DNA of 64,000 bases, from positions 512,001 through 576,000 of the forward strand of contig CAVOXA010000001.1 of the NCBI GenBank assembly GCA_963700285.1. Direction: 5' to 3'. Under the pieces are notes generated by a model that was not told where the DNA came from, did not search any database, and was given only the letters and a program-made list of their open reading frames with translations. This DNA comes from an uncultured Chloroflexia bacterium. Lineage in GTDB: Bacteria; Chloroflexota; Anaerolineae; JAAYZQ01. Shown here piece after piece: positions 32,878 through 36,204 of the stretch. Position 1 is the first letter of the stretch, and each line of letters opens with the position of its first letter. The position numbers were made by a program, and so were the translations under genes.

Positions 32878-33092
32878 TTGACAGGTTCTCCCTTTGATGT
32901 TATACTGGCGCCGAAAAGTGTGGAGGGATTAGAGGTTTCTTTGAGCATACAACAAGATATCAGATCGGTGGCGTTCGACAACCCTAGCAGTGATCCTCTG
33001 CCGCCAGACTCCCGGTCTGGATAGCTATCGCGCGCCGTCGGTGCCTGCCTCTTAGGCCAGCTCTCCAGACCAGGGGAGGGACTGGTTTTTTT
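32878..33092 (+). promoter_or_regulatory. Promoter and candidate leader-peptide transcription attenuator
   Basis: TTGACA-17-TATACT; 27-codon ORF 32941-33024 with 4 Pro codons; mutually exclusive helices; terminator 33055-33092 with U-tract. Confidence 0.6.
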
Positions 33093-33127: not shown

Positions 33128-33761
33128 ATGAAAGTCCTGGCCGTAAGCGACAAGGTGGATGAACTACTCTATAGTCCGGCCATCAAGCATCTGTTTGGTG
33201 AAGTAGATCTGGTATTAGGCTGCGGGGATCTGCCTCACTACTACCTGGAGTTCATCACGACCTTGCTGGGCGGGCCGCTGTTCTATGTCATTGGTAACCA
33301 TGCCAACGAGATCAAGCATTCCCATCAGCCCAGGCTCCGGTGGGAATACCCAGGAGGCTGTGTGAACATTGACGGGCGCGTCGTCCAGTCCAAGGGTTTG
33401 CTCGTTGCTGGTCTGGAGGGTTCGATGCGCTACAACGACAGGGAGCACTTTCAGTACCGTGAAGGGGAGATGGCCCGGAAGGCATGGGGCCTGGCTCCCT
33501 CGCTGGTGATGAACAAGCTGTTCCACGGTCGGTATCTGGATATCTTGATCACCCACGCACCGCCCAAAGGCATCCACGACAAGCCGGACCTGTGTCATCA
33601 GGGATTCCGCGCTTTTGTGACGTTCATGGATCGCTTTCGGCCGCGCTATCTGATCCATGGGCACGTACATGTCTACAGCCCGAACGAGACGACGGAGAGC
33701 GTGTATCGGGATACGACCGTAATCAACGCCTATGGCTATCGAACTCTGGAGATAAGTCCTG

Positions 33762-33772
<11 letters not shown>
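33128..33772 (+). CDS. Metallophosphoesterase (calcineurin-like)
   Basis: VSD, CGD, GNH, THAPP and HGH motifs. Confidence 0.9.
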
Positions 33773-35893
<2,121 letters not shown>

Positions 35894-35959: not shown

Positions 35960-35993
35960 AGAGCCCCCTCGTTGAGAGGGGGCTCTTTTTTTT
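35960..35993 (+). terminator. Intrinsic terminator after proS
   Basis: AGAGCCCCCTC/GAGGGGGCTCT stem plus T-run. Confidence 0.88.
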
Positions 35994-36204
35994 CCCAACA
36001 CCTGGTGTTTCTTGGCGCAGTCCATCTTCATCGTCAGTCTACTTTGCTCCACCCTTGTCGAACCGCATACCATAGACACAGAATACTGTATTTCATCCCC
36101 CTGTTTCTAGTTTCTGTACGCGAAGCTAATATTGTACAGTCCGCCATGAGTGTCCAGTATCCTGCTTTCTATATTAAAATTTCCGGCCTATGACCACATA
36201 ATGC

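Follow-up and report, generated by a model that had tools for sequence, protein, structure and literature searches.

A candidate proline leader-peptide attenuator ahead of proS in Anaerolineae, and homologous leaders with Arg and Lys control codons

Introduction

Attenuation of transcription by a translating ribosome is in itself a textbook principle. Its classical leader-peptide examples include trpL, hisL and thrL of Escherichia coli, with pheM-pheST as the case in which an aminoacyl-tRNA synthetase is the target, and in classical attenuators the switch between RNA structures is kinetic. A leader peptide with Lys codons is found ahead of homocitrate synthase and the aminoadipate lysine pathway in Thermus thermophilus, and we know of no proline version of it. 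The usual regulator of proS, which encodes prolyl-tRNA synthetase (ProRS), is the T-box (RF00230) in Firmicutes, and work by Lopatovskaya from 2010 is said to list no attenuator for this gene. The mgtL leader of Salmonella is Rho-dependent.

Several described systems come closer in one respect or another. E. coli leuL counts among the classical leader-peptide attenuators (PMC5314783, PMC8384417). For Salmonella mgtP/mgtL, a response to low levels of prolyl-tRNA was shown by codon replacement (PMC3641672), and uORFC-8-2, located before cysS in Rhodobacterales, is described as a cognate-codon uORF attenuator predicted by comparative genomics (PMC8632094). A literature search of openly available papers gave no account of a proline leader before proS or of a Chloroflexota scaffold family of the kind described below.

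Here we analyse a leader in a 64,000-nt stretch of DNA (the window, which denotes this whole stretch) from an uncultured Chloroflexota bacterium of the class Anaerolineae. As judged from sequence and its comparison, the leader is very probably a classical ribosome-mediated attenuator that would raise expression of the proS operon when prolyl-tRNA is scarce.

Results

The leader and its parts

All the elements that a first-pass annotation had proposed for this leader, namely a promoter, a 27-codon ORF with a TTG start, helix 1:2, an antiterminator and a terminator, are present where it had placed them (Table 1). The same is true of its count of four Pro codons in eight, which include a Pro-Pro-Asp motif and start at 32983, 32995, 33001 and 33004. 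Helix 1:2 has a folding energy of -9.6 kcal/mol, and the terminator stem, within 33055-33086, one of -16.8 kcal/mol with a T7 tract at 33086-33092. The antiterminator pairs 12 of 13 positions, and its sole mismatch falls on the T of TAG. The folding energy of the leader as a whole is no better than chance when compared with shuffled sequences (z = 0.12); the case against chance lies in conservation.

Table 1. Positions of the leader elements and operon genes in the window
Feature	Position	Strand	Remark
Sigma-70-type promoter, TTGACA-17-TATACT, extended TG	32878..32906	+	11/12 consensus matches
Probable transcription start	near 32913	+	
Shine-Dalgarno-like AGAGG, 5 nt ahead of the leader-ORF TTG	32931..32935	+	sequence
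Leader ORF, 27 codons, TTG start, TAG stop; putatively translated	32941..33024	+	
Control region: Pro codons -13 (CCT), -9 (CCT) and -7 (CCG) relative to the stop	32983..33003	+	
Segment 1, CCAGACT, with the structural Pro codon CCA at -6	33004..33010	+	pairs with 33014-33020
Segment 2, antiterminator 5' arm; covers the TAG stop and the two codons before it	33014..33026	+	
Segment 3, antiterminator 3' arm; overlaps the terminator 5' arm	33059..33071	+	
Intrinsic terminator 3:4 with T7 tract	33055..33092	+	
Metallophosphoesterase gene (PF00149), first of the operon	33128..33772	+	
LOG-family (TIGR00730/TIGR00725-like) gene, frameshifted in the assembly	33762..34310	+	
G+C-rich hairpin without U-tract after the LOG stop; also in a same-genus genome	34313..34342	+	
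proS, prolyl-tRNA synthetase family I (archaeal/eukaryotic type), likely regulated target	34445..35893	+	frameshifts in 3' third

Conservation among relatives

The metallophosphoesterase gene is present in 29 of 41 genomes, and the core motif of the leader lies upstream of it at 19 of 29 distinct loci, with 18 of 19 in the family to which the window belongs. Promoter, leader ORF and terminator occur together at 18 of the 19 same-family loci; at the remaining locus the contig breaks off. A promoter with at least 9 of 12 consensus matches stands upstream of 25 of 27 proS-operon leaders, the slices for the other two being too short. Conservation of the leader ORF, the lack of which would by the first-pass annotation have counted against the proposal, is evident from the frame in which its signals are kept: a Shine-Dalgarno-like motif with an in-frame start is found in 25 of the 27 leaders, as against 4/27 and 5/27 for the other two frames. 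Twenty-seven codons is the modal length (9 of the 25 leaders with a called start), and the TTG start and short ribosome-binding-site spacing, both of which had been entered as caveats, are common to the relatives.

The primary sequence of segments 2 and 3 is highly conserved, and pairing is conserved with it. In an unfitted alignment of 40 sequences, 99.6% of 236 cells in the antiterminator core are paired and three of its six pairs show two-sided changes, values for pairing and covariation that none of 500 shuffles reached, so that the compensatory changes for which the annotation had called are found. For helix 1:2, 93.8% of cells are paired and covariation is weak, the pair count being reached by 27 of 500 shuffles. 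Each of ten terminator stem positions is paired in 24-26 of 26 homologues. The lone antiterminator mismatch is the stop-codon T in 26/26 leaders, which were themselves selected on that motif. Locus L069 (indel) does not enter the pair counts, nor do L103 and L120 (no anchor) the counts for 2:3 and 3:4.

A pattern scan of genome contigs returned 52 matches, 28 of them from Chloroflexota and with a terminator: 25 before the metallophosphoesterase operon, two before argG-argH with Arg-rich leaders, and one truncated. proS is in view for 23 of the 25, and the other two are cut short. The remaining 24 matches (23 from outside Chloroflexota, one from Dehalococcoidia) lacked both a terminator, as judged by eye, and any of the genes tested for, and were treated as chance occurrences.

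A covariance model that spans codon -7 to the terminator, and so excludes the control codons, found matches in 92 of 151 genomes of the class. Across a phylum-wide sample, 8/151 genomes match, these being the window's own genome and seven of nine genomes of one other family, in which Lys and Arg leaders but no proS leader were seen. Within the class, the proS version has a patchy distribution: family I proS is present in 115/151 class genomes, and 40 sampled regions upstream of family I proS without a class-search match yielded one clear and one possible diverged leader.

Within the own genome, blastn and a mostly Pro-type nhmmer profile recovered only the window copy. Other searches brought the significant matches there to two and revealed a paralogue, an Arg version with CGA-CGA at G000:C4:111996-112084 on the minus strand (L151, L243), ahead of argG-argH-lysX-type genes of a LysW pathway.

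Modelling of the switch

In a folding model of the window in which the ribosome footprint is masked, the probability of antiterminator pairing, P(2:3), is 0.82-1.00 with a Pro codon in the A site and falls to 0.00 from codon -4 on, with the terminator formed up to the stop; the modelled change of state thus comes directly behind the last Pro codon. When the transcripts of 45 proS-type leaders are made to end behind segment 3, the antiterminator 2:3 is formed in 31, 34 and 40 of them with the A site at -12, -9 and -7/-6, respectively, and in 11 without a ribosome. At full-length equilibrium with a stalled ribosome the antiterminator wins in just 15-20 of 42 proS-type leaders, and this weakness of 2:3 implies that the switch must be kinetic, that is, co-transcriptional. 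The ribosome-free fold is the antiterminator in the window and, by a loose measure that counts partial pairings too, the terminator in 38 of 42 relatives.

Under the proposed mechanism, a ribosome supplied with ample prolyl-tRNA would reach the stop and cover segment 2, and 3:4 would terminate transcription at about 33090. When prolyl-tRNA is low, the ribosome would wait with one of the Pro codons (-13 to -6) in its A site, where it would cover segment 1 and leave segment 2 free, so that 2:3 could form before segment 4 is made; polymerase would then read through the metallophosphoesterase gene, the LOG gene and proS. Other causes of low prolyl-tRNA charging, such as the loss of m1G37 (PMC8384417), would be expected to act on the switch too.

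Control codons and target genes

The class search gave 129 rows, of which 87 were analysed, 31 viewed and 10 already covered by the earlier collections, with one contig-edge row left out. The scaffold precedes proS, argG or argC, and homocitrate synthase or lysX: the analysed rows comprise 23 proS-type, 27 arg, 32 lys and 5 other leaders, and the viewed rows 13 lys, 13 arg, 5 other and no proS leaders. L206 was counted as proS-type from its MazG-metallophosphoesterase context, proS itself not being in view.

Control codons follow the target. At codons -15 to -8, a region never seen by the model, and with three training rows left out, Pro outnumbers Arg and Lys in 22/22 new proS-type leaders. 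Arg leads in 18 of the 25 arg leaders, with 5 ties and 2 misses, and Lys in 28 of the 32 lys leaders, with 1 tie and 3 misses. Leaders rich in Pro at these codons, as the first-pass annotation had described for the window, are confined to the proS type. Cognate codons in this region number 209 in the 79 non-training matches with an assigned target; 10,000 shuffles of the labels averaged 92 and never exceeded 137, a contrast that is inflated by relatedness, kin not being independent. An ArgG search placed the same scaffold before argG at 14 of 30 loci, that of the own genome among them, and the leaders there have CGA codons in tandem around -13 to -10. At locus L053 the leader holds a single Pro.

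CCT makes up 40 of 87 Pro control codons, compared with 15.8% in the own genome's long ORFs, and CGA 36 of 43 Arg control codons, compared with 10.5% genome use; this leaning towards rare codons fits sensitivity to charging. No tRNA-Pro with anticodon AGG was found in the own genome. The stop varies (TAG, TGA or TAA), but it lies six codons after CCA in 18/22 proS-type, 18/25 arg and 30/32 lys leaders.

CCA or CCG at codon -6 is found in the Arg and Lys leaders as well, where Pro is kept because CCAG pairs with CTGG, and the Pro-Pro-Asp of the window is therefore half structural. This bears on the sensing of EF-P, which the first-pass annotation had offered as an alternative. On a reading of this kind, what the leader detects would be EF-P activity or the slow making of Pro-Pro bonds, and not the supply of prolyl-tRNA. 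We consider such a reading very unlikely. It can draw on the Pro-Pro-Asp of the window, on Pro-Pro in 18 of 27 proS-operon leaders, on an efp gene in the own genome and on the precedent of Salmonella mgtP, a leader with Pro codons that receives EF-P input (PMC5021804). Pro-Pro is absent, however, from 9/27 proS-operon and 17/22 class-search proS-type leaders, and its second Pro is the structural CCA, which is present in Arg and Lys leaders too. A ribosome stalled with Asp in its A site would stand at the edge of the switch, with P(2:3) at 0.82 or 0.00 according to the footprint assumed, and no examined match precedes efp, the two in the own genome included. EF-P or Pro-Pro-Asp sensing is the part of the annotation that finds no support: Pro-Pro is dispensable, and the CCA at -6 is part of helix 1:2. 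EF-P could be a secondary input at most, in members that bear Pro-Pro.

Sensing of prolyl-tRNA through a translated ORF also has to be weighed against the view that the conserved RNA is a riboswitch, a T-box or a protein-binding element and the ORF incidental. High conservation of the primary sequence of segments 2 and 3 would suit such an element, as would C-rich repeats that read as Pro in the -1 frame too (67 of 243 codons are CCN there, 53 of them CCC), a property that makes an RNA-level constraint on the C-rich stretch possible. Yet the Shine-Dalgarno motif and start are kept in one frame only, and control codons differ from target to target over an unchanging RNA core. Rfam 15 gave no match at gathering score in the window and none on the leader up to E 10, so the annotation's own concern that an Rfam riboswitch might explain the structure finds no support there; the six sub-threshold T-box-like matches of the own genome all lie elsewhere, four of them followed by first ORFs that resemble other synthetases by eye. 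Taken with the control-codon pattern, these observations leave an incidental ORF extremely improbable. A resemblance of the leader's 5' end to SAM-I and T-box elements, judged by eye, was dropped.

The scaffold with Arg or Lys codons is predicted from sequence to control arginine and lysine synthesis. The lysX-first leaders L135 and L214 carry the Arg-type scaffold, and they may head LysW-dependent arginine operons, given that the argG operon of the own genome includes lysX-type genes.

Variant arrangements of the scaffold were also noticed. Tandem attenuators occur as two Lys-type copies before homocitrate synthase in L162, L173 and L177 and as two Arg leaders before argG in L100. In the argC-type copies L143, L172, L182, L190, L191, L212, L298 and L299 the stop lies 3-7 codons upstream or the scaffold frame is shifted, often with AGG codons, possibly as a variant geometry. 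In L161, L159 and L309 the scaffold stands before genes for two binding proteins, one of the Lys/Arg/Orn ABC type and one of the branched-chain type, and before a gene whose product resembles citrate synthase at its N-terminus when judged by eye.

The operon and proS as its target

In the window the leader is followed by the metallophosphoesterase gene, the LOG-family gene and proS, in that order. The LOG and proS genes are frameshifted in regions 33960-34230 and 35440-35700. As the LOG gene is intact in the same-genus genome and argG is also split in the window's assembly, these frameshifts are likely to be assembly indels.

That proS is the third gene had been raised as a caveat, and for the window the gene order stands as described. 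For the family the caveat is answered, since the leader lies directly upstream of proS in 16 of the 23 proS-type matches, ten of family I and six of family II; the remaining seven precede MazG-like, metallophosphoesterase or LOG genes. Standing directly before either ProRS family, the leader goes with the ProRS function rather than with the accompanying genes, and the metallophosphoesterase and LOG genes are probably passengers.

One could still suppose that the attenuator is real but in the window controls the metallophosphoesterase and LOG genes alone, with proS served by a promoter of its own in the gap of 134 nt, which has a strong hairpin, between LOG and proS. Against this, promoter calling gave nothing like a sigma-70 promoter in that gap, its hairpin has no U-tract, and among relatives the genes in between differ (MazG-like, DUF4032, LOG, or no gene at all), with proS as the constant member. 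We judge a separate proS promoter highly improbable, and take proS as the likely target of the attenuator.

Other features of these operons and of the own genome were recorded alongside. A strong intrinsic terminator at window positions 35960-35996, after proS, closes the operon. MazG-like, metallophosphoesterase, DUF4032 and LOG genes accompany proS in varying subsets, and locus L047 has a DUF4032-LOG fusion. No proB gene scored above cut-off in the own genome, which is 89% complete. A second, diverged proS family II-like gene, below NCBIfam cut-offs, lies at G000:C9:161001-162566 (L242:1502-3067) and is preceded by a promoter of its own and by a short ORF that does not belong to the present family. 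Leaders composed of a promoter, a short ORF and a terminator with a GCCGTGGG-type arm were seen at G000:C10:~930750-930860, C10:~728800-728960 and C9:~301060-301220 (L244, L245, L246); they precede two ABC-F ATPases and a transporter-like gene and are candidate translation-stress attenuators. The leader at G000:C10:~986400-986570, before an mtnA-like gene, we take by eye to resemble a SAM-I riboswitch.

Discussion

The comparative data support the classical attenuator geometry, the Pro control codons and the proS target that the first-pass annotation had put forward for this leader. We think it likely that Anaerolineae and at least one further family of Chloroflexota share an undescribed modular attenuator, in which one RNA cassette has been copied and its copies redirected to new targets through exchange of the control codons alone (Pro, Arg or Lys), and of which the Pro version is a prolyl-tRNA feedback sensor that stays with proS where ProRS family II replaces family I.

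If this is correct, proline and ProRS would join the amino acids and synthetases served by classical attenuators, which would stand beside the T-box as another means of control, and a proline-specific classical attenuator would come together with a natural codon-swap experiment on how attenuators gain their specificities. Such a scaffold family bears on the origin of attenuators for different amino acids: its members can still be recognised as homologous, the codons assigned to sensing occupy a sharply defined stretch (-15 to -7), and some copies stand in tandem. A cassette with exchanged Pro, Arg and Lys blocks could also yield a portable sensor of charged tRNA.

The T-box likewise senses the charging of its cognate tRNA through an antiterminator; unlike the T-box, the proS leader would sense by way of translation, and no RF00230 match lies at the locus. 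The Lys branch of the scaffold resembles the homocitrate-synthase leader of Thermus thermophilus in its Lys codons and in the pathway that follows. With uORFC-8-2 the leader shares cognate codons ahead of an aminoacyl-tRNA synthetase gene, but that case concerns cysteine and a different phylum, and no Rfam similarity was found for the proS leader (PMC8632094). The Salmonella mgtP/mgtL leader ORFs also carry Pro codons, three of them consecutive in mgtP; unlike the proS leader, they control Mg2+ transport and virulence genes, and their output is not a 3:4 terminator scaffold (PMC3641672). The closest likeness is to trpL, leuL and pheM-pheST, with which the leader shares a short ORF whose control codons match the operon, the segments 1-2-3-4, an intrinsic terminator and a target that is either a synthetase gene or a biosynthetic operon. 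It differs from the classical E. coli attenuators in being directed to proline and proS, in the position of its control codons, which precede the stop by 7-15 codons and are followed by a structural tail with a fixed length of six codons, and in belonging to one homologous RNA scaffold that serves three amino acids.
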